Part shown: piece after piece, positions 15,330 through 36,797 of the stretch | Numbering within the stretch: the stretch's first letter is position 1 | Layout of the letters: each line of letters starts with the position of its first letter | Source of the DNA: Candidatus Uhrbacteria bacterium | GTDB lineage: Bacteria > Patescibacteriota > Patescibacteriia > 2-12-FULL-60-25 | Assembly: GCA_014728435.1 (NCBI GenBank) | Contig: WJLP01000096.1 | Location: forward strand, 1-38,152 | Length of the DNA: 38,152 nucleotides | Direction of reading: 5' to 3' | Notes under the pieces: generated by a model | Told to the model about the DNA's origin: nothing | Database searches by the model: none | What the model saw: the letters and a program-made list of their open reading frames with translations, nothing else | Position numbers and translations under genes: made by a program

Positions 15330-16433
15330 ATGAAAACCGCACTCGCACCCCATGTCTCATACCTCGTACAACGCATCGGCGTGTCTCTTTTGCTATTTTT
15401 CGCGCTGGCAACAATTTTCGGCGCCGGCTGTAAAAGGACTCCGCCGCAAATTCCATCCGCAAATGAAAATCAACCCCCGGCAACTCAAGAAGCAAATAAT
15501 AAGCAGGATCAAGATCAACAAATGCAAGAAGTTGAAGTCGGCGACCCGGCCACTCTTGCCATCCTCCTGCTCACCCAAGAATCCCAAGTCACGGTCGCCC
15601 GCGGTGACGAAAGCACGGACGCCGTACATCAAATGGAGCTCTACGCCGGTGATGAAGTCAGTGTCATTAAAGGCGAGGCTCAACTCCTTTATCCCGAAGT
15701 CGGTATGTCCGTTCTCCCGGAAGGGACCAGAATCACCATCATCCCCGGTGAAGACGCGGAAAACGGCGGCTTTTCGTCACAAATCCTCCTTGAAGCCGGC
15801 AAAATCTGGACCAGGTTGGAACACGTGCTTGGCACGGATGAAGATTTCTCGGTCGAAGCCAGTAATGTGGTAGCCACGGTCCGCGGCACGGCCTTTGGAG
15901 TCTCGTTCGTCAACGGTGAAATCGATATCAAAGTCGCGGGCAACCAGGTTGCCGTTTCAACCCGAGAAGCTCTGAAAAATCTAAAAGAAACCGCGCAAAA
16001 AGCTGTTCTGGTTGCCTCCGGCAATGCGCTCAAAATCGACCCGGCAAATCTAAAACCCGGAGAAAACCCGCGCCCCAAACTGCTCGCAAAACTGCGCAAA
16101 GTTTCACAAACCGAAAAGAAAGATCTCTACTACAGATTCGGTACGCGTCGCCTAAACATCACTGATCTAAAAAAACCGGAACAAACATTCAAATGGTCCG
16201 CGCCCATCGGTCTCAAAGATAAGGTTAAAGAGCGCTTAACCCCCGAGCAGATCGAAAAGCTGAAAGCCATCCAAGACAAGCAAATCAGATTACGTCCCGA
16301 ATTACTGGAAGACGAGGCTCGTTTGCGAAATATTCTACAAGATTCTGTCCGCTTCCAAACTCCGCTCCGTCAGGTAATTCTTGAAGAAATGACAACCGAT
16401 GAAACGCCGTCAGCCACAGGTCCGAGCAATTGA
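15330..16433 (+). CDS. FecR-domain lipoprotein, paralogue 1
   Basis: Signal peptide with lipobox FGAGC. FecR-like core LYAGDEVSV..GEAQLLYPE..MSVLPEGT...AGKIWTR...FSVEASNVVATVRGTAFGV. Confidence 0.8.
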   Translation: MKTALAPHVSYLVQRIGVSLLLFFALATIFGAGCKRTPPQIPSANENQPPATQEANNKQDQDQQMQEVEVGDPATLAILLLTQESQVTVARGDESTDAVHQMELYAGDEVSVIKGEAQLLYPEVGMSVLPEGTRITIIPGEDAENGGFSSQILLEAGKIWTRLEHVLGTDEDFSVEASNVVATVRGTAFGVSFVNGEIDIKVAGNQVAVSTREALKNLKETAQKAVLVASGNALKIDPANLKPGENPRPKLLAKLRKVSQTEKKDLYYRFGTRRLNITDLKKPEQTFKWSAPIGLKDKVKERLTPEQIEKLKAIQDKQIRLRPELLEDEARLRNILQDSVRFQTPLRQVILEEMTTDETPSATGPSN

Positions 16434-16568
16434 GACCCGGAGTTGTCCCTCGAAGCTTTAGTGTAAGGGGATTAAATTTAATTTCATCATACTAGGAATT
16501 ATGATTAATTTGAGTTTATATTTTGGTGAATTTGGGTCCGGCGCCGTGTTGTGCTAAGCTCGCTTGGT

Positions 16569-17801
16569 ATGAAGTTAAGCAAAGTTTTACCGCTGGCACT
16601 CGCTTTGATTATTTTTGGAGCTGGTTGTAGCTGGTTTGGACAAACCGAACCAGGCTTAAAAGCGGAATTGGGCGGTTCGCTCACTCAGTCCGAAGTAGAG
16701 CGCTATAATGAGTTTCAAGATAAATTGCCCAAAGGCTTGGCTTATTTGAATATCCCAAGCGGCTCTAAAGTTTTCGTTAGCCGCGGTAAGGAACGGATGC
16801 CGGGCAAGCAAGACATGGCGCTTTATGCCGGAGACACGGTTCACGTTAACACCGGCGAAGCTAAGCTGTTATACCCGGGAAAAGGCATGTCACTCTTGCC
16901 CAAAGGCGCGGCTGTCACAATCTTGCCCGAGGGTGAGTTTGCCTCTGGTCAAGGTTTGGGTGCCTTAATTATCCTTGAAGCCGGCAAGATCTTCACTCGT
17001 TTTGAGCAAATACTCGGCCATGGCGAGGAGTTTTCCGTCCAAGTCGACAACGTGGTGGCCACGGTTCGCGGCACGGCATTCGCTGTCTTCAAAATTGAGG
17101 ACACTGTCGATATACAAGTCGCCGAATCTACAATAAAAGTTACAACTCGCGATGCCATGGATTATTTAAAACAAAGTAACTCCATGCTGGCTGATGTGGG
17201 CTGGGAGTTAAGCGCTGGCCGGCAAATCAGCCTGCAAGATATGGATGAATTCAGGGCATTGGCTCAAATTGAACCTGTCTCAGACGACAGCTTTGCTTAC
17301 TTTGACATGGATTACTATTATTCCAACCTGTTTGCCTCCGGCACGCAAGACGTCGTCATCAATACCGCAGATCGCCAAGGTTTCAACTGGATGTCGCGGC
17401 AAATGACCGCAACCGAACTCGCGATGCCGGAAAACCCTTATCACTGGACCAAGCCGCCCGTAATTGATCCGTACTATCTAAACTATATAAATCCTGAACG
17501 CTTGTCCGAATGGCAAAGTTACATTTTATGGCTGGAAACCAATCAAGATGAAGCCGCGCGCATGGAAGAAATCCGCTTGCAAATGCAATCCGAGGGCATG
17601 TTTAGCGCGCCGGTTGAATCGGCTGACAGCCAAGACGAATCACCCGCTTCAGTAAAACCTTCATCAGACGGTCCAACCGATGAACCACCTGAAAGCATAA
17701 TTTACTACGACGAAAACGGCCAGCCGCATTTTACGGATGAAGCCCTGGGAACTGATTCAAATAACGACAGCGTCGAGCTTTTGGGTGTCCCTGCTGAATA
17801 A
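16569..17801 (+). CDS. FecR-domain lipoprotein, paralogue 2, with an acidic C-terminal extension
   Basis: Lipobox FGAGC. The core LYAGDTVHV..GEAKLLYPG..MSLLPKGA...AGKIFTR...FSVQVDNVVATVRGTAFAV is collinear with paralogue 1. Start taken at ATG 16569. Confidence 0.8.
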   Translation: MKLSKVLPLALALIIFGAGCSWFGQTEPGLKAELGGSLTQSEVERYNEFQDKLPKGLAYLNIPSGSKVFVSRGKERMPGKQDMALYAGDTVHVNTGEAKLLYPGKGMSLLPKGAAVTILPEGEFASGQGLGALIILEAGKIFTRFEQILGHGEEFSVQVDNVVATVRGTAFAVFKIEDTVDIQVAESTIKVTTRDAMDYLKQSNSMLADVGWELSAGRQISLQDMDEFRALAQIEPVSDDSFAYFDMDYYYSNLFASGTQDVVINTADRQGFNWMSRQMTATELAMPENPYHWTKPPVIDPYYLNYINPERLSEWQSYILWLETNQDEAARMEEIRLQMQSEGMFSAPVESADSQDESPASVKPSSDGPTDEPPESIIYYDENGQPHFTDEALGTDSNNDSVELLGVPAE

Positions 17802-22860: not shown

Positions 22861-22960
22861 TCCAATCATCAATAAATAACCAATATCCAAAAAAATAACA
22901 ATAATCAAATTGGTTTCTTGTATCTATTGGTTATTGTTTTGTTAATGATTGGTTATTCAG
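22861..22960. repeat. Low-complexity imperfect inverted repeat of aataaccaat/attggttatt k-mers
   Basis: Same k-mer family as at 2749-2862 and 31751-31775. Confidence 0.4.
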
Positions 22961-23008
22961 GTATTGAGTCATCCACAGTTTAGATGATGCCGCTTGTGGC
23001 GGTTTTTG

Positions 23009-23017
23009 TGGTATAAT
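23009..23017 (+). promoter_or_regulatory. Extended -10 (TGgTATAAT) 8 nt upstream of ATG 23026
   Basis: tggtataat followed by ttagccaa and then ATG. Confidence 0.5.
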
Positions 23018-23025
23018 TTAGCCAA

Positions 23026-25005
23026 ATGCCCCAGAGGAAAAATAAACGCAAAATAGCGAAAAATCGCAAGGCGCTTTATGATTACATGACACCCGCTTTT
23101 TGGCGCGCGCATTTTATTTTCCCGGCTGCCATTTTTTTCCTCTCCTTGGGCATAGCTTTGGGAATAGCTCATAACTCAACTTTTAAAGCAAGTCCCACTT
23201 TAGCCACTTCCGCGGATAATATTATTGGCTGGGCCTGGTCATCACACGTGGGCTGGTTCTCTCTAAACGACACGAATGCCGGAGCATGCGGAACACCTCC
23301 ATGCGGAACCTACGGAATTCACATCGACCCTAACACGACTACGCAACCGCACTGGGATCCGTCTCAACCTCCCGGATCAACCACCGACGGACATGGAATC
23401 AACGGCTTTGTTTGGTCCGATAATGTCGGCTTTGTTTGTTTTGGCGACTCATGCAACATTCCCGCTTGCACGGGCTCTTTCTATCCGGATCCGCCGGGGA
23501 ACGAATTCTATGCATATGCCGAGCCTATAGCAGGCACGAACACTGTTGAAGTCCACGGATGGGCTGTTATTTGCAATCAAAAAGACGGTGGTTGGATCTC
23601 GCTAAACTGCAACGATCTTGGCGCCTGTGATGGTTCAGCCGGTTCAACTTATTACCGCTTAACATATAACCCTGTTACGCAAGAATTCCATGATGCCGGT
23701 GTCCAAGGCTCGCCCTTTGGTTGGAATGGAAACACCGATGGCTCGGGCATCGGCTATATCAACTTTTTTGCCAGTTCTTTGGGCATGACTCTTAACGAAG
23801 ATCCAGAAGATGATTATCCCGAATGCCACGATGGAAATGATAACGATTTAAACGGGCTGGCCGATTGTTCTGATCCTGCCTGCGGAGCCGTATGTACCGA
23901 GATTTGCGATAACGGATTAGACGACGACGGCGACGGTGATATCGATTGCGCGGATTCTGACTGTGCTTGCACCGAGTCCATCTGCGACGACGGCATAGAT
24001 AACGATATAGACGGCGATATAGACTGTGCTGATTCTGATTGCGCCGCCGACCCGGCTTGCGTGCCTCCACAGCATCAGTGTCTTGATTTCGCCGGAGATC
24101 CCGACCAAGCCAACCTCTGCTGTAACGACCAAGATCCCAATGGCACCGCCTTTGTTGATTGCTTTGATCCGGATTGTCGCAATAATGCATCTGTTTGCGC
24201 GGCTTGGTTGCAGGTTTCAACCGGCAATATCTATGCCTTTCAAGGTATCGTTGGCACCACGCCGTCGGCTGAAACCGGTCTAACCAATACAAAATGGTGC
24301 CTCCGCTCGGATCAAAGTATAGAATGGACCTCATCAGAATCCTGCAAGCAAGAAGGAGTGGGGGAGATCGCTCTGCCTTCGCAAGAAACGCTGTACCGCA
24401 ATAAACTCGGCTTCCTCGATCTGGCCGGAATGCGCGTAAATAACCGTTACGCTCAGGTGATTCCCATCGCCGGCGCCACGGCCATACCCGATACGCTAAA
24501 TGGCGCCATCTACCACTACACGGGTGGAGGAGAGCTTGCCTTGCCCGCTAAAACTTTCCAAAACGGCACCGGCGCAACCGGTAACGGCGCAGGCCTTCTC
24601 CTTATCGACGGAGCTGATCTGCGCATCACCGGCGATATTTCCTACACAGCCAATCCTGTTCAAGACCGCCTTAAAAATCTTGCCTCATTCGGCGTAGTGG
24701 TTGTAAAAGACTCATTTGGTGCCGGTGGCAACATCAGAATCGATCCCGGCGTTGAGCTCGTAAGCGGCGTCTATTTTGCGGAAAGTGATATTTACACAGG
24801 AACATCAGCCCCTCCACCGGATTCTTATCTCGACATGGTCGGCATTTTCATTGCCAACCAGTTCAATTTGGAACGCGATAACAATACCGATCCAACCCGA
24901 CCGGCCGAACGTATTCTTTTTGACGGCCGCGCGGTCGTAAATCCTCCACCGGGCCTGTCCGACATCAGCAAATCTTTGCCTCGATCAACTCAAGTATCAT
25001 TCTAA
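23026..25005 (+). CDS. Membrane-anchored 659-aa repeat protein; first gene of the pilus operon
   Basis: - TM segment at aa 27-49.
- Four Trp-repeats: GWAWSSHVGWFSLN, GFVWSDNVGFVCFG, HGWAVICNQKDGGWISLN and GWNGNTDGSGIGYINF.
- Cys/Asp modules: CHDGNDNDLNGLADCSDPAC, CDNGLDDDGDGDIDCADSDC and CDDGIDNDIDGDIDCADSDC.
- A Gly/beta-rich C-terminal domain. Confidence 0.8.
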   Translation: MPQRKNKRKIAKNRKALYDYMTPAFWRAHFIFPAAIFFLSLGIALGIAHNSTFKASPTLATSADNIIGWAWSSHVGWFSLNDTNAGACGTPPCGTYGIHIDPNTTTQPHWDPSQPPGSTTDGHGINGFVWSDNVGFVCFGDSCNIPACTGSFYPDPPGNEFYAYAEPIAGTNTVEVHGWAVICNQKDGGWISLNCNDLGACDGSAGSTYYRLTYNPVTQEFHDAGVQGSPFGWNGNTDGSGIGYINFFASSLGMTLNEDPEDDYPECHDGNDNDLNGLADCSDPACGAVCTEICDNGLDDDGDGDIDCADSDCACTESICDDGIDNDIDGDIDCADSDCAADPACVPPQHQCLDFAGDPDQANLCCNDQDPNGTAFVDCFDPDCRNNASVCAAWLQVSTGNIYAFQGIVGTTPSAETGLTNTKWCLRSDQSIEWTSSESCKQEGVGEIALPSQETLYRNKLGFLDLAGMRVNNRYAQVIPIAGATAIPDTLNGAIYHYTGGGELALPAKTFQNGTGATGNGAGLLLIDGADLRITGDISYTANPVQDRLKNLASFGVVVVKDSFGAGGNIRIDPGVELVSGVYFAESDIYTGTSAPPPDSYLDMVGIFIANQFNLERDNNTDPTRPAERILFDGRAVVNPPPGLSDISKSLPRSTQVSF

Positions 25006-25009
25006 AAAT

Positions 25010-26083
25010 ATGGGATTATTTTCTAAAAAAACCACCAGCAACTTCATCGGCCTCGATTTGGGCCTCTCCGGCTTAAAGCTGGTCGAGTTGGCTAATGACG
25101 GCGGGCACGCCCGTCTGGTCACTTACGCCTACGTAGACCGCCCGATAGAAAGCTTTGATGCCATGTTCGGCGAACATCTGGAAGAAACGGCTCAGCTTAT
25201 CAAAGACATGATTGCCGAGTCCAAGGCCACCACCAAAAACACCATCGCGGCAGTACCTGTCTCATCCATTTTTACCTCCATTATCTCGGTACCCGCCAAC
25301 AATGACAAAGAACTTAAAGAATCTATTGCGCTCCAAGCTAAAAAGCTCATCCCGGTTCCGCTCGACGAAATCCAGCTGGACAGCAAAGTCATTGAAGGCG
25401 CTTTCAAAACCGAGGGCAAGAAAAAAGTCTCTCGAGTGCTGTTAACCGGCGCGCCAAAGTCGCTGGTAAATCGCTATATCGACTTGTTAAACAAACGCTG
25501 CGGCCTTAACCTGATCTCGCTCGAAACCGAAACTTTCGCGCAAATCCGCGCTCTTATCGGCAAAGACCGCTCCAGTATCATGGTTATAGACATCGGCTTT
25601 CACCGAACTAACATATCGGTCGTGGACAAAGGCGTACCATTTTTAAACCGCTCCATTGCCGTGGGCGGCGATGGCATTACGCAAACCATCTCGCAGATGC
25701 TCGGCATCCCATACCAGCAATCGGAAACAATGAAGCGGGATATTCGCTCCATGGCGTCATTCGCGCCCTCCGGCGACCTCACACCCATGCTCGAAAGCTT
25801 AATGGAACCCATCCTAAACGAAATCCGCTACTCATTTTCGCTCTATCAAGGCCAGGGCGATGCCGGAGAACAAAGGCGGATAGATAAAATCATCCTAACC
25901 GGAGGCTCGGCCTTATTACCCAATTTAACCGATTTTCTCACACAGCAGATGAATGTAAACGCCTATCTTGGCGACCCTTGGGCGCGCGTTGTTTATCCAC
26001 TGGATCTGCGTCCCATTTTAGATGAAATCGGATCCAGGTTCGGCGTGGCACTTGGCTGCGCCATGCGTGATATAACTGATTAA
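25010..26083 (+). CDS. pilM: Type IV pilus assembly protein PilM (actin-like ATPase fold)
   Basis: IGLDLGLSGLKLVEL near the N-terminus, and DIGFHRTNISVV and ILTGGSALLPNL, typical of PilM/FtsA-like proteins. Confidence 0.88.
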   Translation: MGLFSKKTTSNFIGLDLGLSGLKLVELANDGGHARLVTYAYVDRPIESFDAMFGEHLEETAQLIKDMIAESKATTKNTIAAVPVSSIFTSIISVPANNDKELKESIALQAKKLIPVPLDEIQLDSKVIEGAFKTEGKKKVSRVLLTGAPKSLVNRYIDLLNKRCGLNLISLETETFAQIRALIGKDRSSIMVIDIGFHRTNISVVDKGVPFLNRSIAVGGDGITQTISQMLGIPYQQSETMKRDIRSMASFAPSGDLTPMLESLMEPILNEIRYSFSLYQGQGDAGEQRRIDKIILTGGSALLPNLTDFLTQQMNVNAYLGDPWARVVYPLDLRPILDEIGSRFGVALGCAMRDITD

Positions 26084-26085
26084 TT

Positions 26086-27168
26086 ATGGCGGATATTTCT
26101 TTCCTTCCTGAAAATTTACGACAAAAGGAAGAGGAAATGAAGAAACAAGGTTCCCAAACCGCTTCATCCGAAGTGGTTAGTATGCATGTGCCCGAAACCG
26201 AAGAAGAAGATGTTGAAATTATCGAAGTGGATGCCAGCGAGGTGGATCAAATGCTTATCGGCGAGCCGCTTTACACCAGGCTTTATTACAAAGCCAGTCT
26301 TTTGTTTGAAACTTTGAAAGAAAAGTATTTTGCTCCTCGCCCTGAAGAAAGGCCCGCCAAAGCGCCTCCGCAATTTTTTAAGCCGCCCAAAGCCAAAGAA
26401 GCTCCCGCCAAGCCCGGCGAGGCACCCAAGCCCGAACCGGCGAAAGCTCCCGCCAAAGCCGAAGCCCCCGCCAAGGAAGAAAAGCCAACCGGCAAACCCA
26501 AAGCCCGCATACGCCCCGAGGCCGCCAAGCCGCGCACGGGCCGCAGGGTTCGTATCATCAAACGCGTTCGCAAACCGGTGCATGTCAGTCTTTTAGACGA
26601 GCAAACCATGCGCGATTTGCACATCAATATACCCAAGCGCAAATTCACCCTGGTCTTTTTAACAATATTCTTCGCGGTGGTATTCGCGGGCGCGTTTTTA
26701 CTGCTCGATCAAGCCATCGCTCAGGCCGCGGCGGAGAGCAATGCAGTACAACGGGAACTCGCCCAAGTTCGTTCCGATGTAAAATCCGAACAAGATAAAT
26801 GGCGCGCATTCCAAGATCTCGAACCCAGGCTTTTGGTGTTAAATGACTTACTCGACTCCCATGTATCAGCCAATAATGTGCTGGATTTTCTGGAACAAAA
26901 CACTCTTGTGGATGTTTCCTACAGCTCATTTATGATGAGTGAGGACGGTAGAGTAAATTTGGGAGTCACGGCCTCAAGCTATGCGGCGGCGGCTCGCCAG
27001 CTTCTAATCTTCGAAGAATCTCCGCAAATCGCCTCCGCGCAAAGTAATTCTTTTACCGCGGCCGAATTGGAGGGTGATGAATATGTAACTTTTCAACTAA
27101 TTCTTGAACTCGAGCCCGAGGCTCTCTTATTCAAATCAGCCACAAGCACTCCGTCGTTAACAGATTAA
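26086..27168 (+). CDS. PilN-like bitopic protein with a long acidic and Pro/Ala/Lys-rich cytoplasmic linker
   Basis: N-terminal ISFLPENLRQKE resembles the PilN INLLP motif. There is one TM segment (aa 187-207) and a coiled-coil periplasmic part. Position directly after pilM. Confidence 0.65.
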   Translation: MADISFLPENLRQKEEEMKKQGSQTASSEVVSMHVPETEEEDVEIIEVDASEVDQMLIGEPLYTRLYYKASLLFETLKEKYFAPRPEERPAKAPPQFFKPPKAKEAPAKPGEAPKPEPAKAPAKAEAPAKEEKPTGKPKARIRPEAAKPRTGRRVRIIKRVRKPVHVSLLDEQTMRDLHINIPKRKFTLVFLTIFFAVVFAGAFLLLDQAIAQAAAESNAVQRELAQVRSDVKSEQDKWRAFQDLEPRLLVLNDLLDSHVSANNVLDFLEQNTLVDVSYSSFMMSEDGRVNLGVTASSYAAAARQLLIFEESPQIASAQSNSFTAAELEGDEYVTFQLILELEPEALLFKSATSTPSLTD

Positions 27169-27223: not shown

Positions 27224-27847
27224 ATGGTCAGAATTTCCCAAAAACCGGGCGAGAAACAAAAAAAAGCAGCGCCCGAGATAAAGAAACCATCCAGAGTATT
27301 CACCGAATATTATTCTTCGATTATTCTGATTTTAATCACGATCCTTATCGGAGCCGGATACTTTGTTATCAAACCCAAAATCGACGAATACAAAGATCTG
27401 CGCGCGCATTCCGAATCCTTACGCCAAAATATCAAAAACGAACAAACTTATTTGGCCGGATTAAGACGCTCTGTAAATGCCGCTCAATCAATTGCGCCGG
27501 GAGTATTGGAGAAAGTCGACCAAGCTCTGCCCAGGTCATTTAGCATACCCAAAACAATCGTACTCATTAACAGCGCCGCCACAGCTTCCAACGTATCCGT
27601 CTCCAGTATAGTATTCAGCCCGGAAACCGAGTCCAGAGCAAAGAAAACCTCTTTGCAAAGCGTGCAAATGACACTAAATGTTAGCGCTCCGGATTACGCG
27701 GCGCTGAAAAACTTTTTAAACACTTTAGAGGCCAGTTTGCGCTTAATCGATATTCAAATGCTTACCGTATCCGACTTTTCCGAAGGCCAAGCCAGCTTTT
27801 CATTACAGTTGAGGACATATTATTACCCCAAAGATGAAACCAAATGA
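27224..27847 (+). CDS. PilO-like bitopic pilus assembly protein
   Basis: A single TM segment (IILILITILIGAGYFVI) followed by a coiled coil and a roughly 100-aa domain. Gene order is pilM-N-O. Confidence 0.6.
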   Translation: MVRISQKPGEKQKKAAPEIKKPSRVFTEYYSSIILILITILIGAGYFVIKPKIDEYKDLRAHSESLRQNIKNEQTYLAGLRRSVNAAQSIAPGVLEKVDQALPRSFSIPKTIVLINSAATASNVSVSSIVFSPETESRAKKTSLQSVQMTLNVSAPDYAALKNFLNTLEASLRLIDIQMLTVSDFSEGQASFSLQLRTYYYPKDETK

Positions 27848-28212
27848 TTATGAAGATAAACGGAGCGCCGCCAATTTTTTCCCGCATCCTATTTGCCGTA
27901 TCAGCACTGGTAATGGTTGGTGTTGTATTTATTTTTGTTTCTCGCGCCTTGGAGCCGGCGAATATTATTCCCGTCGCACCTCCCAAAAAGGCCGAAAAAT
28001 TTAACCCTAAAGCCGATGTATCCAATAATCCGTCTTTCGACCAACTGCAAGAAGATCATATTAAAGATGTTCCGGACATGCCCATGGGCAGGGAAAATCC
28101 TTTTCAATCCATTGTAACTCCGGCCGCCACGACCACCAACAGCCAACGATCTGTCCCGCGCAGCGGGCTAAGATTGGCACCCGTAGCAACCAATACCGAA
28201 CAAGGCGGCTAA
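27844..28212 (+). CDS. Small bitopic protein of the pilus operon; possible PilP analogue
   Basis: ATGA overlap with the preceding gene, one TM segment, and GRENPFQS, which resembles the R-D/N-P-F motif of PilP-type proteins. Confidence 0.5.
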   Translation: MIMKINGAPPIFSRILFAVSALVMVGVVFIFVSRALEPANIIPVAPPKKAEKFNPKADVSNNPSFDQLQEDHIKDVPDMPMGRENPFQSIVTPAATTTNSQRSVPRSGLRLAPVATNTEQGG

Positions 28213-28272: not shown

Positions 28273-30099
28273 ATGAACCAACAAATACTCGATTTACTGC
28301 AAAAGCAAGGGGCGATAGACGATAAATCACGTGGCATCGCCGAGGATTTGGTTAGCCGCGGCAAAACTTTGGAACAAGCTTTGGTAGGGGGCAAATACGT
28401 CTCTGATACGGATTTTGCCAAAGCGCAAGCCCAAGTATATGGAGTGCCATACATGGATCTCTCCGAGATGGAGCCCAACCCCGAGGTTTTGGAGCTGATC
28501 CCCAAAAAGACTTTAAAAACATACAAAGCGGTTCCCGTTGAGTACACGGACGGCGTGCTGACCGTGGTTTTGCGCAACCCTCAAGATTACCGCGCTGTTG
28601 AGGCATTGGAATTCTTGGCCGGCGAACGCGAGTGGAAAATCAAAGTTGCCACCGCGCCCGCGTCGCAAATAAACAAAATGGTCAAATCGCTAAGCGGCTT
28701 GGAAGCTGAAATTGAAACCTCGCTCGAAGCCGCGCGCGGTAAATTCGAAAAAGAAAAAGAAGAAGAAATAACGGGTGATGGTAAAATCGAAGACATTATC
28801 AAAGGCGCCCCTGTTTCGCGCATGCTATCGGTTATTATGCGCCATGCCGTTGAGGGCGGGGCATCCGACATCCACATCGAACCCGTTGGCAATGAATCCA
28901 GAATTCGCTACCGCATCGACGGAGTTTTGCGCACATCTCTCACTCTGCCTGTTTACGTGCATCCAGCGCTTGTTTCACGCGTCAAAGTTTTGGCTAATCT
29001 TAAAATCGATGAAACGCGCATACCGCAAGACGGGCGCATTACCCAGGAAATCAACAATAAAAAAATCGACTTCCGCATCAGCACGCTTCCGGTCGTTGAT
29101 CATGAAAAGGTTGTAATGCGTATTTTGGATACAACGGCCGGCGCTCCCACTTTCGAGCAATTGGGTTTCCGTAAGCAATACATTGAGATCATGAAAGAAG
29201 AGCTTAAAAAACCGCACGGCCTTTTTCTTATCACCGGCCCCACCGGTTCCGGTAAATCCACCACTTTATTTTCCGGCTTAAACGTACTAAACTCCGACGG
29301 CGTCAACATCTCCACCTTGGAAGATCCCGTTGAATACTACATCGAAGGCGTGAATCAGTCCCAAGTCCGCCCCGAAATCAACTACACATTCGCCACCGGC
29401 CTAAGGTCACTTCTGCGCCAAGACCCGAACGTCATCATGGTCGGCGAAATCCGCGACCGTGAAACCGCCGAGCTGGCTATCCATGCTTCTCTCACCGGCC
29501 ACCTCATTTTTTCAACTCTGCACACCAATGATGTCTATGGCCTCGTACCCCGTCTGCTCGACATGGGCGTTGAACCTTTTTTGCTTGCGGCCACCATGAA
29601 TATCGGTGTAGCACAGCGTTTGGCTCGTAAAATCTGCCCGCATTGCAAAGAAGAAGAAGAAATTACCGATGAAACGCGCGATGAAATCATGCAGGTGTTA
29701 AAAGGTATTCCCAAAAAATATCTCACCGATATCGATCTCAATAAAAAAATCACTTTCTATCACGGAAAGGGCTGTCCCAAATGCGGAGATATCGGTTATA
29801 GCGGGCGCACCGCGGTTGCCGAGGTCTTCCAGTTCAACGATGCCGCTAAAAAATCAATTGAAAAAGGCTTTAGCCGCAAAGTCTTTAAGGCTGAATTCGA
29901 AAAGCAGGGGATGATAACGCTCTATGAAGATTTGGTGTTAAAAGCGGTTGAAGGAGTAACAACCGTGGAAGAGGTAAAGCGCTTGGCCCAAGAAACTTCC
30001 GAAAGCGAGGATTTGGATGAAAACGGTCAGCCAAAAGAACCGCACGCTCTCGATAAAGCTGAGCCGGCAGAGTCAAATAAAAAGAAAACCGGCCAATAA
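28273..30099 (+). CDS. pilB: Type IV pilus assembly ATPase PilB (GspE family)
   Basis: Walker A GPTGSGKST, the Asp/His boxes (VGEIRD, LTGHLIFSTLHTND), the tetracysteine CPHC...CPKC, and an N-terminal GspII_E_N-like domain. Confidence 0.93.
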   Translation: MNQQILDLLQKQGAIDDKSRGIAEDLVSRGKTLEQALVGGKYVSDTDFAKAQAQVYGVPYMDLSEMEPNPEVLELIPKKTLKTYKAVPVEYTDGVLTVVLRNPQDYRAVEALEFLAGEREWKIKVATAPASQINKMVKSLSGLEAEIETSLEAARGKFEKEKEEEITGDGKIEDIIKGAPVSRMLSVIMRHAVEGGASDIHIEPVGNESRIRYRIDGVLRTSLTLPVYVHPALVSRVKVLANLKIDETRIPQDGRITQEINNKKIDFRISTLPVVDHEKVVMRILDTTAGAPTFEQLGFRKQYIEIMKEELKKPHGLFLITGPTGSGKSTTLFSGLNVLNSDGVNISTLEDPVEYYIEGVNQSQVRPEINYTFATGLRSLLRQDPNVIMVGEIRDRETAELAIHASLTGHLIFSTLHTNDVYGLVPRLLDMGVEPFLLAATMNIGVAQRLARKICPHCKEEEEITDETRDEIMQVLKGIPKKYLTDIDLNKKITFYHGKGCPKCGDIGYSGRTAVAEVFQFNDAAKKSIEKGFSRKVFKAEFEKQGMITLYEDLVLKAVEGVTTVEEVKRLAQETSESEDLDENGQPKEPHALDKAEPAESNKKKTGQ

Positions 30100-30123: not shown

Positions 30124-30495
30124 ATGGAAAAGGTTAAAATAGTTTTTATCGAAGATGACGCGTTTTTGGCGCAAATTTATACCAAAGCTTTGGATCAAGC
30201 GGGGTATGACGTTGCGCTGGCTCAAAACGGCGAGGAGGGCTTAAAACTCATTGAACGCGAACATCCGTCATTAATTCTCCTGGATATCTTATTGCCCCAC
30301 ATGGATGGTTTTGAAGTCCTGGAAACACTGAAATCCAGGCCGGCTTTACAGCCCATACCCGTACTGGTAATAACCAATCTGGGCAATAAAGAGGATGTGG
30401 ACCGCGCCGCAAGCCTGGGTGCCGCCGGCTATCTCATCAAGGCGCACGCTTTGCCCAAAGATGTTGTCGGTAAAATCCAAACCATTCTCGGTTAA
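30124..30495 (+). CDS. Stand-alone response-regulator receiver (CheY/PilH-like)
   Basis: Acidic pocket IEDD, phospho-acceptor D54 (ILLDILLP), T in VITNLG and K in YLIKA. There is no output domain. Confidence 0.9.
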   Translation: MEKVKIVFIEDDAFLAQIYTKALDQAGYDVALAQNGEEGLKLIEREHPSLILLDILLPHMDGFEVLETLKSRPALQPIPVLVITNLGNKEDVDRAASLGAAGYLIKAHALPKDVVGKIQTILG

Positions 30496-30497
30496 TT

Positions 30498-31709
30498 ATG
30501 CCTTCTTTCCGTTATCAAGTACGTTTACCCGACGGCCGGATACAATCCGGTATTGTTGAAGCATCCGACAGCGACAGCGCGGCAGAGGCCTTGGAAGACC
30601 GCCAATACGAAGTTTTATCCATCGACACTTACGCGGGCGTGGAAGCCGGCACAGCTTCCATCATGAAGTATCTAAACACGGTTAAGCCCAAAGAATTGGT
30701 CGCCACCATTCGCATGCTATCGGTTATGGTATCGGCCTCCGTGCCACTTGTGGACGCTGTCCGCAACATAGTCCATCAAACCAAAAATCCTCGCCTCAAA
30801 TCAATCATGGCCGACATTGCCAATGAAATCGAAGGCGGCGCCAAACTTTCCGACGCGCTCGAACGCTATCCCCAAGTTTTTTCCGGCTTTTTTACCAATA
30901 TGATCCGCTCCGGTGAAACCACGGGTCAACTCTCCGAAGTTATGAATTATCTGGCCGACCAGCAGGAAAAAGATTATGACATGAAAGCCAAACTGCGCGG
31001 TGCCCTTATGTACCCGGCCTTCATTATTACGGGCATGTTTATTGCCGGCTTTATCATGATGGTGTATGTGGTTCCCAAACTTACCCAAGTCATCATCGAC
31101 GCCGGTGCCGAATTGCCGTTGTCAACCCGCATTCTAATCGGCACCTCCGACATACTGGTCAACTTCTGGTGGGTTATTCTCATCGGCCTTATCGCTCTTG
31201 GAGGATTTTTCTACGCTTGGGTCAGAACCTCCGAAGGCCGTTATACTTTTGATAAGCTCAAGCTCAAAATACCGATTTTCGGCGGTCTGCTCCGCGATAT
31301 CTATATAGTCCGTTTTTGCCAATCCATGCATACGCTTATGAAAGGCGGGCAAACGCTTGTCCAAGGTCTGGAAGTTGCGGCATCCGTTATCGGCAATGAA
31401 GTCTGGAAGCGTATGATTTTGCAAACCATCCAAGCCGTAAACGATGGTGAATCCATTACATCCGTCATGACCAACCGCAAGTTTGTACCGCAAATGGCCG
31501 TGCAAATGATTTCCGTGGGTGAAGATACGGGTCAGCTTACGGATGTGCTAAAACGCGTCAGCGAATTTTACTCCCGCAGTGTGGATAACGCCTCGGCAAC
31601 CTTACTAACCCTCATCGAACCGATCGTCATGGTCGTGCTCGGTGTTGGCGTGGGGCTTATGGTCTCGGCCATCATGCTCCCTCTCTACCGCATCTCCGGA
31701 GGTATCTAG
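30498..31709 (+). CDS. pilC: Type IV pilus platform protein PilC (GspF family)
   Basis: 403 aa with two GspF repeats (..EGGAKLSDALERYPQVF.. and ..NDGESITSVMTNRKFVP..) and three TM regions. Confidence 0.92.
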   Translation: MPSFRYQVRLPDGRIQSGIVEASDSDSAAEALEDRQYEVLSIDTYAGVEAGTASIMKYLNTVKPKELVATIRMLSVMVSASVPLVDAVRNIVHQTKNPRLKSIMADIANEIEGGAKLSDALERYPQVFSGFFTNMIRSGETTGQLSEVMNYLADQQEKDYDMKAKLRGALMYPAFIITGMFIAGFIMMVYVVPKLTQVIIDAGAELPLSTRILIGTSDILVNFWWVILIGLIALGGFFYAWVRTSEGRYTFDKLKLKIPIFGGLLRDIYIVRFCQSMHTLMKGGQTLVQGLEVAASVIGNEVWKRMILQTIQAVNDGESITSVMTNRKFVPQMAVQMISVGEDTGQLTDVLKRVSEFYSRSVDNASATLLTLIEPIVMVVLGVGVGLMVSAIMLPLYRISGGI

Positions 31710-31987: not shown

Positions 31988-32503
31988 ATGCTTATGAAAA
32001 ACAAGAAAGGTTTTACTCTAATCGAACTCTTGGTGGTTATTGCCATCATCGGCATCTTGGCCACGCTTGCTGTCGTCGCTTTTGGTAGCGCGCAAGAAAA
32101 AGCCCGCGACTCCAAACGCGTCGCCGACATGCGCGCCGTTGTTGCCGCCTTCGCCGCGGCAGAAACCGAAGGTAATTATATTTGTAATAGCTCATGTAAT
32201 TCTACTTTTACAGCGAATACCGACGTAGCAATCAGTGATGTAAAAATCTGTGACAATGACTGTGTAACGGGTGGTAACGATGTGACTAATAATTTCATTA
32301 ATTTGAGCCAAGTATTAGACCCGGAATACGGAGGTAGTGGTACTTTATGTGACGGTACTAATACGAATTGCGATTACGCAATAGACGCTTCACCCGCTGT
32401 TCCGACGATCGAAGATTTCGAGCTATATTTCTTCACCGAAGGCGAAGTACAGGGTCTGGGAGCCGGTGCGCACACAGCCGTCCAAACCGGTATTATCCAA
32501 TAG
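31988..32503 (+). CDS. Type IV pilin, probable major subunit
   Basis: Class III signal KKG|[17 protein letters not shown] with Glu at +5. The variable, Cys-containing C-terminal domain is AT-richer. A strong terminator follows. Confidence 0.88.
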
Positions 32504-32655: not shown

Positions 32656-33123
32656 ATGATCAATCGTCAAAAATTGTTAAAAGGAATAACAATTCCCGAA
32701 CTTTTAATCGGAGTATTGGTTATCGGAATAGTAATCGCTATTTTTGTCTATGCCCTGGGTGTTCAGCGCGCCATGTCCCGCGATGCCAAGCGCGTATCCG
32801 ATATCAGCGTACTGCGCGCGGCCATCGGCCAGTACTACCTGCAAAAAGCCACTTATCCAACAACAGACGGTATTTTCCTCGGCCAGCCCGGCGGTGCCGA
32901 ACGTCTGGGCGGTAACGGCTTTACCACGGCAGACGACCCAACCAAGCCCATCTTTTTAGACCAAATTCCCACAGGTCCAACCGGAGATGAATACTATGCC
33001 TACCGCGGCAATCAATCCGGATACAGCCTCATGTTCAGCACTGAACGAGAAACCGCCTACGGGCCGCCCGGTACTTATTACGCGCACTCAATCGGAGTCG
33101 ATCAACTGGATGAGATAAAATAA
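32656..33123 (+). CDS. Second type IV pilin-like protein
   Basis: LKG|ITIPELLIGVLVIGIVIAI with Glu at +5 and Ile instead of Phe at +1. The ARDxKRxxD-type helix continuation (MSRDAKRVSDISVLRAAI) parallels the major pilin. Confidence 0.8.
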   Translation: MINRQKLLKGITIPELLIGVLVIGIVIAIFVYALGVQRAMSRDAKRVSDISVLRAAIGQYYLQKATYPTTDGIFLGQPGGAERLGGNGFTTADDPTKPIFLDQIPTGPTGDEYYAYRGNQSGYSLMFSTERETAYGPPGTYYAHSIGVDQLDEIK

Positions 33124-33249
33124 GAACAAAATGCAAAATGCATAATTCAAAATGCAAAATGACGGAATCTCTTCGAGATGATATTTATATATTTAATACC
33201 GTAAGGTATCGTAGATTTTGATTTTTGGTTTTTGAATTTTGAATTAATT
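33124..33249. repeat. Low-complexity inverted repeat of aaatgcaaaat/attttgaatttt k-mers flanking two small hairpins
   Basis: aattcaaaatgcaaaa on the left and ttttgaattttgaatt on the right, with atctc-ttc-gagat and tacc-gta-aggta in the centre. Confidence 0.45.
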
Positions 33250-34047
33250 ATGCAGTTTTTCGAAATTTTTTCAATCTTAATATCCGCGGCCGTCGTTGGC
33301 TCATTTTTTGGCTCTTTTATCAACGTGGTCGCCATCCGTACGCATGAAAATTCCGGCATTACCGGCCGTTCCAAATGCCCTAATTGCAAATCCAAACTCC
33401 ATCCGCGCCATCTGGTGCCTGTTCTGTCTTGGCTGATCCAACGTGGCAAATGCGCCATGTGCGGCAAACCTATCCATATCCAGTATCCGGTCATCGAGCT
33501 TACAGCCGCAATTCTCGCAGTTGTTGCCGTAACTCGTCACCTTCCCGACGGAGAATGGCTCTGGGCGGGTTTTGAGTTCTTCTTCATGGTCGGACTGCTT
33601 GTCTTTGTTGTTATGGATCTGCGCTGGATGGAACTGCCGCTGGAACTCATGGTCGGCACGGGCATAGTATTTTCGCTTTGGCACATGGTTTTGCAAAGCT
33701 CAACCGGCATGCCCTCTTTGCAGGTGCTTTGGTCGCATGCTGTTGGATTTGCCTTGGCGACCATGTTTTTCTTGTTTCAATACATTGTTTCGGCCAAGCG
33801 CTGGGTGGGAGCCGGCGACATCTGGCTCGCGGCCGTATTGGGCGCGGTCTTGGGCTGGCCTCTTGTGGGTATTGCTGTTTATTTTGCCTACATTTTTGGC
33901 GGCAGTGCCGCGCTAATCCTGCTTTTTACCCGTAAAATCAAAGCCGGCGCCCGCATACCCTTTGCGCCCGCGTTAATAACCGGCGCTTTTGCCGCAATCT
34001 GGTGGGGGCCCAGCGTCCTTGCCTGGATATCTCATGCAGTCTCGTAA
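33250..34047 (+). CDS. pilD: Prepilin peptidase (A24 family)
   Basis: N-terminal Zn-type CPNC...CAMC, polytopic, and the catalytic-Asp context GAGDIWL. Start at ATG 33250. Confidence 0.9.
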   Translation: MQFFEIFSILISAAVVGSFFGSFINVVAIRTHENSGITGRSKCPNCKSKLHPRHLVPVLSWLIQRGKCAMCGKPIHIQYPVIELTAAILAVVAVTRHLPDGEWLWAGFEFFFMVGLLVFVVMDLRWMELPLELMVGTGIVFSLWHMVLQSSTGMPSLQVLWSHAVGFALATMFFLFQYIVSAKRWVGAGDIWLAAVLGAVLGWPLVGIAVYFAYIFGGSAALILLFTRKIKAGARIPFAPALITGAFAAIWWGPSVLAWISHAVS

Positions 34048-34675
34048 ATCATCAGGATTCACAATCATAGAAATGTTGATCGGCGTATCAATCGTTATTT
34101 TGCTTGCCACTGTAACCGTCTTTGAACTTAGAAGCGCCAGGCGCGGCGATGAACTTAGAACTGCCGCCCGCCAGCTCGTGGGCGACATCCGTGCCATGCA
34201 ATCACGGGCGCTTGCCGCAAAAAATCTTAAAACTTGCGATACGGGAGGCCCTGATAAGGCCGTCTGTGAAATCGATGAATCGGCGTGCGGCGGCAACCCT
34301 TGCGAGGATGATATCCCGGCCGCCTACGGGGTGCGCTTGGAGTCCGGCACTTCCACTTATGTCATGTTTGCGGACATAAACCCGTCGGCCGCCGTGGATT
34401 ACCGCTACACCGATGCGGCCGAACTCTTTGAGTCGCGCAGTATCTTGCCGCTCGGCTCAACCGATGTAGTGCTCGATCAAATCATTTCCGGCACCTCCAC
34501 GAGCGTCACATTTGCAGACATTTCTTTCATGCGCCAAAATGGAGTTGTTAGAATGTACGACACCACAGTCCCTCCCGAACCCACGCTTATGAGATTCCGC
34601 CTTAGGCACACGGTTTCCAATCAGACTATGGAAATAGAGGTCAACCGCATAACCGGCCGAGTATCCATCTTATGA
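34034..34675 (+). CDS. Minor pilin, GspH/FimT-like
   Basis: SSG|FTIIEMLIGVSIVILLA with Glu at +5, followed by RSARRGDELRTAARQLVGDIRAMQSRAL, typical of the GspH/FimT helix. Overlaps pilD by 14 nt. Confidence 0.72.
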   Translation: MQSRKSSGFTIIEMLIGVSIVILLATVTVFELRSARRGDELRTAARQLVGDIRAMQSRALAAKNLKTCDTGGPDKAVCEIDESACGGNPCEDDIPAAYGVRLESGTSTYVMFADINPSAAVDYRYTDAAELFESRSILPLGSTDVVLDQIISGTSTSVTFADISFMRQNGVVRMYDTTVPPEPTLMRFRLRHTVSNQTMEIEVNRITGRVSIL

Positions 34676-35256
34676 AGATGCATTTAGCGCCCGGCCAAAC
34701 CATCATGGAAATGCTGGTCGTGTTTTTTATTATCTCTGTCGGCCTCTACGGCGCGGTTACACTCATCTTCTCCAACGTCCAACTGCAAGAGCAGGATTAC
34801 GACCATATCATTGCCATGAATTTGGCCCGCGAAATGCTGGAGCTGACCCAAAACGTACGCGATTCCAATTATCTGGCCAACTTCGCTTTCGACGACGGTT
34901 TGGGCACTGACACTGGCGCGGATTGCACTGCCGTACCCGATTGGGACGGAACCGGCGTGCCGGCCTTCGACTTTACGGTTGACGACATCGCAAACGGCGC
35001 GGTCAACCGCCAAGCTAACGGTATGTTTACCAACCAATCGGGGAGCAGTACCAGATTCTCGCGTCTAATCACATTTTCACCCATCTGCGCCGATCCGGCC
35101 GACCGTTCCGATACGCAAGTGCCGGCCGGCTGTGCTTGCGGGGGAGGCGCTTATACCGAACAAATCGGAGTCCGCGCCAAAGCCGATGTTGCCTGGACCC
35201 GCAAAGGCCGCTCCGATAGCTTAACCATTTACACCGATCTGTATGACTGGAGATAA
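34672..35256 (+). CDS. Minor pilin, PilV-like
   Basis: APG|QTIMEMLVVFFIISVGL with Glu at +5. ATGA overlap with the upstream gene. Confidence 0.68.
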   Translation: MKMHLAPGQTIMEMLVVFFIISVGLYGAVTLIFSNVQLQEQDYDHIIAMNLAREMLELTQNVRDSNYLANFAFDDGLGTDTGADCTAVPDWDGTGVPAFDFTVDDIANGAVNRQANGMFTNQSGSSTRFSRLITFSPICADPADRSDTQVPAGCACGGGAYTEQIGVRAKADVAWTRKGRSDSLTIYTDLYDWR

Positions 35257-35893
35257 CTTAAAAAGCTTAAAGTCGAAAGTCCAAAATCAAAAGCTTGTCA
35301 CCAAAAGACATTCAACTTTTAAACCGGGTTACTCTCTGGCCGAGCTGCTCGTGGTGATGCTCTTGTTTAGCTTTGCATTGCTGATCCTTGGCCAGACATA
35401 CATCCAGTTTATCCGGCTATCCAATAAAACCGCCAACGCGGCCACGGTTCAGCAGGATACGCGTTTTGTGCTGGAATACATAGCGCGCGCCGCCCGCAAC
35501 TCTGAGGTTGACTACTCAATCTCCATTGCATCGCCCACATCCAGTTTGCGTCTTATCAAAGAAAGCGGCGATTATGTTGAAATCAGCAAATCCGCGCCCG
35601 GCGACGCGCTTTGCGCCGATGAACCGTCCGTATCTTGCCTGCTGGTCACGGTCGATAGCGGAGCAACTTGGGCACCTCTTACCGCCAAAGGTGTTAACGT
35701 GGATAATTTTGACGTTTACATTTCGCCAACCGTCTCTCCGTTTGAACTGGCCGGCGTACCCGCCGATTACCCCAACAACCAACAACCTTTCATAACAGTT
35801 AATCTCGCTTTAACGTTAAATGCCAATAACCCGCGCGAAAGCTACAGCCAAATCGCGCAAACCAGCATTTCATCCCGTGTATATGTCCGATAA
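35243..35893 (+). CDS. Minor pilin, PilW-like, with an unusually long (27-aa) leader
   Basis: KPG|YSLAELLVVMLLFSFALLIL with Glu at +5. Overlaps the upstream gene by 14 nt. Confidence 0.68.
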   Translation: MTGDNLKSLKSKVQNQKLVTKRHSTFKPGYSLAELLVVMLLFSFALLILGQTYIQFIRLSNKTANAATVQQDTRFVLEYIARAARNSEVDYSISIASPTSSLRLIKESGDYVEISKSAPGDALCADEPSVSCLLVTVDSGATWAPLTAKGVNVDNFDVYISPTVSPFELAGVPADYPNNQQPFITVNLALTLNANNPRESYSQIAQTSISSRVYVR

Positions 35894-36797
35894 CTCAAAG
35901 AACTCAGAACATAGAACACGGAACATTGATTCAAAAAAATCCAAGTTCCAAGTTCCAAGCCTGCCCACCGAAGCTTCAGCGAAAGAGGGTTCCAAGTTCC
36001 TATCGGGCAACATAGTTGCTCTGGCTTTGATTTTGACGTCCGCGATTTTGATTACCGCGATCGGTGTCGGGATCGTCGTCATGCAAGGCGCCAGGCAATC
36101 GCGCACAATGGATGACGCGGTGGCGGCTTATTATTTGGCAAATTCAGGTATCGAGCTCCAGCTCTTTGGTATTCGTAAAGACAGCCGCACTTTGGCCGAT
36201 ATGGGCAACGCTTCCAATACCTATCCCGGAGGCACGAGTTGGGAATCAACAACAGGCTTGGAGCAAACCGGAGTCAAACGCATATCCTACCTTCCCGAAG
36301 AAGAACTGGCTTTTGTAGATCTCTTCAATCCGGATGATATTTCTGAAGCATCCAATGCCGCCAAAGTAAGTGTCACCTGGACAGCCGGGGATGATTGCGG
36401 CATGGAAACACCGGAAATAGAAGCCGCATATGCAGAATGGGAATTCTCCGGCGGCAGTGTCACTTGGCCCAGCGACGAAAATTACACAATCTGGCCTTTT
36501 ACGCCGTCCCCCATGGATATTGCACCACTCGACGTAAACAAATCCTATCGCTTGCGTTTACGTCCGTTTAACTGCTCGGTTAAAGATCTGCAAATCACCA
36601 TGTACGACGTAGGCGGCAACCAGCTCGATTACCCGGGCGACATCGTCCTCGGCTCCGAAGGAACCTACGAGGGCACGACTCAAAAACTCTCCGTATCCAT
36701 GCCACGCCAAGATGTACTCTCCGGTATTTTTAGCTACATCATCTTTTCTCAGCAACAACTCTGTAAAAAAGTCGGCTTAGCCGGCACCTGCCCGTAA
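35883..36797 (+). CDS. PilX-like protein: N-terminal TM helix without a processed pilin signal, then a roughly 240-aa domain
   Basis: GNIVALALILTSAILITAIGVGIVVMQGARQSR...AYYLANSGIE resembles the PilX N-terminal region. The start is uncertain (35883 or 35820), and the first roughly 110 nt is low-complexity (ccaagtt repeats). Confidence 0.58.
   Translation: MSDNSKNSEHRTRNIDSKKSKFQVPSLPTEASAKEGSKFLSGNIVALALILTSAILITAIGVGIVVMQGARQSRTMDDAVAAYYLANSGIELQLFGIRKDSRTLADMGNASNTYPGGTSWESTTGLEQTGVKRISYLPEEELAFVDLFNPDDISEASNAAKVSVTWTAGDDCGMETPEIEAAYAEWEFSGGSVTWPSDENYTIWPFTPSPMDIAPLDVNKSYRLRLRPFNCSVKDLQITMYDVGGNQLDYPGDIVLGSEGTYEGTTQKLSVSMPRQDVLSGIFSYIIFSQQQLCKKVGLAGTCP

Follow-up and report, generated by a model that had tools for sequence, protein, structure and literature searches.

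The gene that opens the type IV pilus operon in a 38,152-nucleotide stretch of DNA from a Candidatus Uhrbacteria bacterium (assembly GCA_014728435.1, contig WJLP01000096.1, positions 1 to 38,152; the whole stretch is called the window below) encodes a 659-aa protein from a large uncharacterised family whose members were encountered here exclusively in genomes of the Candidate Phyla Radiation (CPR, Patescibacteria). The family is defined by its C-terminal domain and heads type IV pilus operons with unusual constancy. The protein is probably a missing accessory part of the pilus, and possibly an adhesin or a piece involved in crossing the cell wall. The CPR comprises a large share of bacterial diversity, and those members that have been cultivated grow attached to other cells. 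Among the surface machines of these organisms, type IV pili are the best conserved, and they have been implicated in host attachment and DNA uptake. The family is therefore a candidate for explaining how CPR pili cross a secretin-less envelope or how they recognise a host.

In the list of open reading frames (ORFs) of the window, the gene occupies 23026..25005 on the forward strand, stop codon counted. The parts of its product that can be distinguished are as follows.

23026..25005, plus strand: ORF of the 659-aa protein (ORF list), with an alternative start at ATG 23086 (M21)
23026..23205, plus strand: putative N-terminal export signal, aa 1-60 (hydropathy, AlphaFold2 helix, alignment of 60 homologues)
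23206..23811, plus strand: Trp-repeat beta domain with 8 Cys, aa 61-262 (repeat register in the alignment, AlphaFold2)
23815..24201, plus strand: four acidic double-disulfide (teneurin C-rich-like) modules of predicted Ca2+ type, aa 264-392 (NF033662, teneurin-4 7PLP, Foldseek)
24199..25002, plus strand: family-defining C-terminal domain, aa 392-659 (hidden Markov model search, AlphaFold2 model)

A preliminary description of this stretch, made from the sequence alone, had mentioned a C-terminal domain of about 260 aa. Such a domain does exist, and no other part of the protein is as strongly conserved, but the end assigned to it fell short, as the protein extends 7 residues past '...KSLP'. What had been overlooked is that this domain rather than the repeats defines the family. 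It measures approximately 265 aa and consists of a linker modelled with low confidence (about aa 393-455) and a beta-solenoid-like core. It carries the motif NPPPGLSDISKSLP at nt 24940-24981 and ends with FDGRAV-NPPPG-x6-SLP, which is the hallmark of the family. Residues P640-P641-P642-G643 and L651-P652 are invariant, and other strongly conserved positions are E628, D633, G634, R635 (invariant or nearly so) and N639.

When a hidden Markov model (HMM) of aa 392-659 was used to search 1.84 billion cluster representatives, 1,554 representatives were found at E <=1e-3 and 352 at E <=1e-30. In the 150 matches listed, the domain ends a few residues from the C-terminus; the full-length proteins are about 450-1,900 aa long and the shorter entries are fragments. 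The full-length homologues all come from Patescibacteria, Uhrbacteria or Parcubacteria metagenome-assembled genomes (MAGs). Matches outside the family have only the Cys/Asp repeat in common with the 659-aa protein. When the C-domain profile was used in a word-index search, nothing but fragments of family members came up. Many third-party annotation (TPA) records of MAGs with this CPR-type locus (L007-L086) bear the title 'uncultured Gammaproteobacteria bacterium', and one bears that of 'Vicinamibacterales'; such records are likely mislabelled or misbinned.

The C-terminal domain occurs in combination with quite different N-terminal parts. The form found in the window has a signal, the Trp domain, one to four Cys/Asp modules and the C-domain. 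A short form of 450-500 aa has the signal, the Trp domain and the C-domain with 2-3 Cys, and is devoid of Cys/Asp modules. The giant form (1,420-1,560 aa) contains 68-77 Cys and extra Cys/Asp modules (3-6 per protein in a motif scan) and has no Trp repeats. Short variants of 450-480 aa are encoded in loci L055 (5359-8607), L069 (5251-10613) and L062 (633-2030), where unknown ORFs come next. Giant forms were seen in L053, L054, L058, L059, L063-L065, L071, L072, L074, L076 and L077 (e.g. L054, 2470-6816); they include a thrombospondin-T3-like stretch, end in the same C-terminal domain and still adjoin pilM.

Existing annotation gives little information on such proteins. A Pfam scan of the 659-aa protein, 60 homologues and the giant and short variants produced nothing but sub-threshold DUF7305 matches and one DUF2341, the latter carried by a family member of 1,887 aa. 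DUF7305 (PF23981; gathering cut-off 27 bits) was matched below threshold, with E values of 3e-4 at best, in 7 of 69 family members and did not appear in the 659-aa protein; a literature search for DUF7305/PF23981 found no published description. Where homologues have a name, it is 'hypothetical' or 'DUF2341 domain-containing' only. The earlier statement that no characterised type IV pilus component has this architecture is in agreement with the blank Pfam result and with these names. Two of the three domain types, the Trp-repeat module and the NPPPG C-terminal solenoid, are absent from Pfam, and adding these uncatalogued domains to domain databases could improve the annotation of CPR genomes.

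The second line of evidence is the position of the gene. The preliminary description had raised the question whether the family is syntenic with pilM in related genomes, and this is indeed what is found. When each GTDB species was represented by a single genome, 80 loci were obtained, 77 of which had enough downstream DNA. In 72 of these 77 the gene lies directly 5' of pilM, PilM starting no more than 400 bp from where the ORF ends; in 46 of the 77 the distance is 20 bp or less. Three of the remaining loci have PilM 1-4 kb away, two of these encoding short variants, with unknown ORFs and a signal peptidase I gene coming next, and the last two have no PilM in the available sequence. Look-ups of individual contigs gave the same picture: all ten informative ones place the family gene directly 5' of pilM-N-O-x-pilB, at identities ranging from 60% to about 30% and protein lengths of 498-1,887 aa (in the P0071 look-up a 291-aa ORF is inserted between the family gene and pilM), and an eleventh contig (P0212) was too short to judge. 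Within the window's own lineage the entire lepA-recJ-RNaseH neighbourhood is conserved, so that adjacency to pilM in this lineage alone is weak evidence. The adjacency is, however, kept where the upstream genes encode an ABC transporter or LemA/M48/ClpB. This rules out plain shared ancestry of the lepA-recJ-RNaseH neighbourhood as the cause of the synteny, and since the adjacency persists with differing upstream genes, the link of the family to pilM is specific.

The synteny also bears on the possibility that the protein is a Ca2+-dependent adhesin or lectin that is exported and functions independently of the pilus, being merely co-regulated with pilus genes. Modular, acidic, adhesin-like repeats of this kind are present in many unrelated surface proteins, and Trp-repeat modules occur in small non-pilin exported proteins as well. 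Nevertheless, strict adjacency to pilM is maintained down to approximately 30% identity and across architectures and upstream contexts, and in every locus examined the conserved C-domain occurs only at this operon position. Without some physical or functional connection to the pilus, such confinement of the C-domain is not easily accounted for, which makes a pilus-independent function improbable.

In the window, the TAA stop codon of the gene (25003-25005) is followed by 'aaat' and then by the pilM ATG at 25010, so the earlier claim that a 659-aa gene opens the pilM-containing operon, with its stop 4 nt before the pilM start, holds. On the basis of this layout the gene is predicted to be co-transcribed with pilM-N-O-B-C, and it is probably also translationally coupled to these genes.

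The N-terminal part of the protein determines where it could reside. It was earlier described as membrane-anchored with one transmembrane helix. A single hydrophobic segment is indeed present, with a Kyte-Doolittle peak at aa 25-35 (19-aa windows) and an AlphaFold2 helix at 23-51, but the anchoring is doubtful. Residues 1-60 comprise a very basic n-region and an h-region at aa 28-48 (nt 23107-23169), the pI (isoelectric point) of the segment being 11.2, and they end in a putative signal peptidase I site, T58-L59-A60, with T61 as the next residue, directly ahead of the first Trp repeat. This succession of n-, h- and c-regions with small residues at positions -3 and -1 is that of a signal peptide. 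In the alignment of 60 homologues, Ala60 (-1) is invariant and position 58 (-3) is A in 36, V in 15 and T in 5 sequences (56 of 60), while distant homologues have textbook signal peptides of 20-30 aa, e.g. MNRLRTLLFAVLALGGALLFISGAEA, with GQSD following the cleavage site. Because of this A/V-x-A site with its invariant Ala60, the helix is more readily understood as a cleavable Sec signal than as an anchor, and it is probably a cleaved signal peptide; in view of the long basic n-region and the 11 residues between the h-region and T58-L59-A60, cleavage at Ala60 is likely rather than certain. The mature protein that would result has a predicted mass of about 63 kDa and a pI of approximately 4.05. 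None of the 28 cysteines is located in the signal region. The protein is thus predicted to be exported, acidic and disulfide-rich. An exported protein containing 28 Cys fits with the disulfide machinery of CPR genomes, in which MdbA-like oxidoreductase and VKOR are enriched (PMC6744442).

Alternatively, the protein could serve in a different way, namely as a collar, stator or conduit that is anchored in the membrane by an uncleaved signal or held in the wall or S-layer, extends PilMNO outward and guides the pilus through the secretin-less, monoderm-type envelope, as a stand-in for PilP/PilQ/TsaP or GspC. The gene is the immediate neighbour of pilM-N-O and often appears to be translationally coupled (46 of 77 loci have a gap not exceeding 20 bp). 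In this lineage, cleavage could be hampered by the long basic n-region and the 11-aa spacer. PilQ is absent from CPR pilus systems (PMC6744442), and the ORFs of the window that were scanned with Pfam gave no match to a secretin or to PilY1, as had been stated before for this locus. Furthermore, a varying count of rigid Ca2+ modules could set the length of a spacer, and the aromatic Trp repeats could conceivably bind wall glycans. On the other hand, the signal peptidase site is conserved, distant members have short classic signal peptides, and the short-variant operons contain a dedicated signal peptidase I gene (S26 family), which is located between the short-variant gene and pilM in L055 and L069. 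The part nearest to the supposed anchor is the one that varies, whereas conservation is found in the distal C-domain; pilins too display the Trp module; and neither sequence searches (Pfam, and NCBIfam for secretin) nor Foldseek comparisons revealed any similarity of the protein to secretin, PilP or GspC. We therefore regard an envelope collar as somewhat less likely than a pilus-associated adhesin, though it is the main and a serious rival of the latter, owing to the position beside pilMNO and the possible retention of the signal as an anchor.

The Trp-repeat domain links the family to pili through its occurrence elsewhere. Four degenerate repeats had been noticed at nt 23221-23766; they are found at nt 23227-23268, 23404-23445, 23557-23607 and 23716-23766 (aa 68-81, 127-140, 178-194 and 231-247) and are kept in register in all aligned homologues. 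The AlphaFold2 model of this domain has a predicted local distance difference test (pLDDT) score of about 85-95, and Foldseek searches of PDB and BFVD gave no structural match. When the window was translated in all six frames, no further copy of the Trp repeat or of the Cys/Asp motif was present. With a profile of aa 60-262, 45 further proteins are matched, which can be divided into three groups. The first consists of N-terminal fragments or truncated forms of the family of the 659-aa protein, and the second of small CPR proteins that are exported, in some cases with a Cys/Asp module as well. The third group comprises bona fide prepilins (such as P0134, P0138, P0139 and P0148) with a KGFTLLE-type N-terminus and 3-4 C-terminal GWAWSxNxGWISFNC repeats; two of these four have a precomputed N_methyl Pfam hit, and one Trp-repeat prepilin (L091, 3683-4720, on a Paceibacterota contig) is encoded two genes 5' of a 506-aa PilM_2 protein. 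Because it occurs fused to prepilins, the Trp module appears to be one that CPR bacteria display on their pili.

The Cys/Asp segment was previously considered to consist of three tandem modules (nt 23824-24198) resembling Ca2+- or metal-binding repeats of the thrombospondin type 3 or MopE type. The Ca2+-type character and the three canonical modules stand, but the HMM family is a different one and a degenerate fourth module follows, so that the block spans nt 23815-24201. The modules R1 (aa 264-291; C267, C281, C286, C290), R2 (aa 291-316; C294, C308, C313, C315) and R3 (aa 316-346; C320, C334, C339, C345) are canonical, R4 (aa 363-392) is degenerate, and the whole segment has 36 D+E versus 1 K+R. 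R1-R3 each have the four Cys and the acidic run per module of about 27-30 aa that characterise NF033662, the NCBIfam 'acidic double-disulfide repeat', which was matched over 3 stretches with 57.4 bits (cut-off 41, E 8.5e-16), much better than chance would give. Pfam assigned the protein to no family at E values up to 1, so that by HMM the modules belong to neither TSP3 nor MopE; MopE was matched in 1 of 60 homologues, with an E value of 0.028.

Among proteins of known structure, the C-rich domain of teneurin-4 (7PLP) is matched by sequence, with E 0.012 for the single sequence and 1.7e-5 with the family profile, and one module could be superimposed on it by Foldseek (prob 0.91, 52% identity, root-mean-square deviation 1.1 A over 29 residues). 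Profile searches with several family alignments found no PDB sequence relatives other than teneurins, and the teneurin match is through the Cys/Asp modules only. The teneurin domain has eight acidic residues and a single Asn with which it binds three Ca2+ ions, much as thrombospondin T3 and LDL-A do (PMC9058538). Its ligands E835, D840, D843, N844, D845, D847, D851, D854 and D856 correspond to E317, D322, D325, N326, D327, D329, D333, D336 and D338 of module 3, where all are kept; most are also kept in modules 1 and 2, and module 4 is degenerate. A bacterial module has four Cys versus the six Cys and three disulfides (1-3, 2-5, 4-6) of teneurin, the position of C858 being taken by Ala or Gly. 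The modules are thus predicted to be of the Ca2+ type and homologous to the teneurin-4 C-rich domain, with thrombospondin-T3-like coordination.

Conservation of these Ca2+-ligand residues would also be expected if the protein were an extracytoplasmic sensor of Ca2+ or another ligand that tunes pilus extension and whose partner would be the receiver-only response regulator, the gene for which lies between pilB and pilC and is conserved in most related loci. A precedent for such a role is Pseudomonas PilY1, in which Ca2+ binding controls pilus extension and retraction. However, neither a histidine kinase nor a transmembrane signalling domain was detected when the protein and the operon were scanned with Pfam, and the short variants keep their position in the operon even though they have no Ca2+ modules. 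A sensor function is accordingly the least probable of the alternatives considered, and a very improbable one.

For the C-terminal domain, structure prediction provides a lead. AlphaFold2 applied to the 60-sequence alignment gave a mean pLDDT of 78, with most of the Trp and C-terminal domains above 85-90, less confidence in the Cys/Asp modules and low confidence in the linker at aa 400-445. The comparison of such a model by Foldseek, suggested in the preliminary description, was informative in part: apart from the superposition of one Cys/Asp module on 7PLP, the full-length model has no significant match in PDB and BFVD. Modelled alone (predicted TM-score, pTM, 0.78), the C-domain contains short beta strands and takes the form of a predicted beta-solenoid. 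Its top PDB folds are three chains of ComZ from Thermus thermophilus (6QVI; E 0.018-0.058, prob 0.72-0.93, 17-19% identity), the best alignment having E 0.018, prob 0.93 and TMq 0.28 over 176 columns. Next comes a series of solenoids from ice-binding proteins (DUF3494), with TMt values of 0.45 or below, and after them the beta-helices of hemolysin and pectate lyase. The nearest fold to the ComZ solenoid is the ice-binding protein FfIBP, and it has been argued that ComZ caps the competence pilus together with PilA2 (PMC6561018); the two top folds found for the C-domain are the same pair that is linked in that paper. Since none of these matches reaches E 1e-3 and the TM-scores are low, the likeness to ComZ and ice-binding proteins is a lead and not a demonstration. 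Sequence searches gave no match to the ComZ or ice-binding-protein solenoids.

Taken together, a non-pilin, pilus-associated adhesin or receptor fits the observations best, because it would account for a conserved C-domain combined with variable N-terminal modules, a Sec signal, a Trp module shared with pilins, Ca2+ sites and a ComZ-like solenoid. The protein would then be an exported accessory of the pilus that is specific to the CPR and functions in the manner of PilY1 or ComZ, docking by a conserved domain and binding by variable modules, although we would give this reading somewhat less than an even chance. The N-terminal helix would be removed by signal peptidase I after Ala60. The beta-solenoid C-domain could dock the protein on a conserved part of the pilus, most likely the minor-pilin priming or tip complex, and the lineage-variable N-terminal modules, held rigid by Ca2+, may serve as the binding or spacer end. 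The protein would thereby act like the non-pilin tip factors PilY1/PilC or the ComZ solenoid, with no homology to PilY1.

Several observations weigh against a tip-associated adhesin. The family gene is at the head of the operon with pilMNO and not with the minor pilins at its end, which is the usual place of PilY1 and ComZ. Profile searches provided no sequence-level link to ComZ, and the fold match is below significance (E 0.018, TM 0.28). The 11-residue spacer between the h-region and the A-x-A site is also unfavourable, since cleavage could fail and leave an N-terminal anchor. Finally, the mature protein is very acidic, which makes a ComZ-like DNA-receptor role unlikely; with a pI of about 4, we disfavour that role. 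A broader proposal, which embraces both the adhesin and the collar, is that the family represents an unrecognised core part of the secretin-less CPR type IV pilus, a Ca2+-stabilised, exported beta-solenoid protein acting either as a host-binding tip that primes and caps the pilus in place of PilY1/ComZ or as a passage through the wall and S-layer. We put this forward tentatively and with more doubt than confidence. If it is true, the lineage-variable N-terminal modules would set the host or surface to which an episymbiont attaches.

The remainder of the locus and the region in front of it contain the following features.

22989..23017, plus strand: terminator-like hairpin with T-run 22989-23003, then an extended -10 box TGgTATAAT at 23009-23017 (consensus matches only)
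25010..26083, plus strand: pilM (PilM_2 and TIGR01175 matches), 4 nt past the stop of the 659-aa ORF
26086-27168, plus strand: PilN-like gene (weak PilN match, E 0.027; position kept in relatives)
27224-27847, plus strand: pilO (PilO match, 1.4e-5; position kept in relatives)
27844-28212, plus strand: 122-aa ORF in the PilP position (position kept in relatives)
28273-30099, plus strand: pilB ATPase (ORF list; counterparts in related loci with T2SSE)
30124-30495, plus strand: receiver-only response regulator (ORF list; counterparts in related loci with Response_reg)
30498-31709, plus strand: pilC (ORF list; counterparts in related loci with T2SSF)
31988-32503, plus strand: major pilin (domain/sequence scan)
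32656-33123, plus strand: pseudopilin-like gene (domain/sequence scan)
33232-34047, plus strand: prepilin peptidase pilD (domain/sequence scan)
33989-36797, plus strand: three N_methyl minor pilins and a 325-aa ORF (domain/sequence scan)

The start codon of the 659-aa ORF is ambiguous, because the extended -10 box ends only about 8 nt before ATG 23026. If both are used, the mRNA would be nearly leaderless; otherwise the real start would be ATG 23086 (M21), as in the public gene call, which gives a protein of 639 aa. The AT-rich intergenic region 5' of the operon contains ATTGGTT(AT) in three direct copies (22909-22915, 22926-22934 and 22948-22956), which could be a candidate binding site for a regulator. 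Further upstream, two adjacent genes for FecR-domain proteins (15330-16433 and 16551-17801) precede lepA, and a FecR-like gene 5' of lepA is found in several related loci as well.

The identity of pilM is well supported by Pfam PilM_2 (4e-40) and TIGR01175 (1.9e-47). The PilN-like protein has a long low-complexity insert rich in Lys, Pro and Ala (approximately aa 85-150) ahead of its transmembrane segment. The 122-aa ORF overlaps the pilO stop by 4 nt and encodes a protein with an N-terminal hydrophobic segment and no Pfam match; in relatives the PilP-like position is taken by an ORF of 79-148 aa. The response regulator gene keeps its place between pilB and pilC in most related loci. As PilB is the sole T2SSE-family ATPase found among the scanned ORFs, the operon appears to have no pilT. 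In two related loci, one of which is labelled Kerfeldbacteria, a second (PilT-like) T2SSE gene follows the response regulator (L087, 18502-19575; L088, 8951-10024).

It is useful to compare the protein with pilus components and adhesion proteins that are already known. PilY1/PilC of type IVa pili is a non-pilin, tip-associated adhesin with a Sec-type signal, encoded in a type IV pilus cluster, in which a conserved C-terminal domain is combined with variable N-terminal modules and Ca2+-binding elements. The 659-aa protein likewise has a putative Sec-type signal, no prepilin motif, a gene in a type IV pilus locus, a conserved C-domain and predicted Ca2+ modules. It differs in that the Neisseria_PilC/PilY1 beta-propeller is not matched (Pfam, E up to 1), in that its C-domain models as a solenoid, and in the location of its gene 5' of pilM, whereas PilY1 is encoded within the minor-pilin operon. 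With ComZ, the best structural match of the C-domain, it shares a resemblance to ice-binding-protein solenoids and a place in a pilus locus. However, ComZ is itself a pilin of the GspK-like kind, in which a beta-solenoid is inserted and the N-terminus forms a hydrophobic pilin helix, whereas the 659-aa protein lacks a pilin fold, and its N-terminus, MPQRKNKRK...FIFPAAIFFLSLGIALGIA, matches neither the prepilin motif G-F-T-L-x-E (cut between G and F) nor N_methyl. By HMM or motif it is therefore neither a PilY1, nor a secretin, nor a pilin.

PilQ, PilP and GspC are comparable with respect to the gene position beside pilMNO and to a wall-crossing function that is missing in CPR systems (PMC6744442), but the 659-aa protein matches them neither in sequence nor in fold, and CPR cells have no outer membrane. 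A 2026 preprint on a 'novel CPR pilus' concerns an unrelated chaperone-usher-like system. The teneurin C-rich domain has the pattern C-x-D-x2-D-N-D-x-D-G-x2-D-C-x-D-x-D-C in common with the modules described here; it belongs to a eukaryotic adhesion receptor, while the bacterial modules have two predicted disulfides, are repeated in tandem three to four times and are encoded in a pilus operon. Modular pilins, such as Streptococcus sanguinis PilB and the CPR proteins P0134, P0138, P0139 and P0148, start with a prepilin leader and a KGFTLLE helix, which the 659-aa protein does not, but the CPR ones carry the same GWAWSxNxGWISFNC-type Trp module. The pilus system and the proposed kind of role are already known; the family, with its putative function, is a clearly delimited and broadly conserved candidate for the part by which CPR pili bind their targets or get across the envelope.

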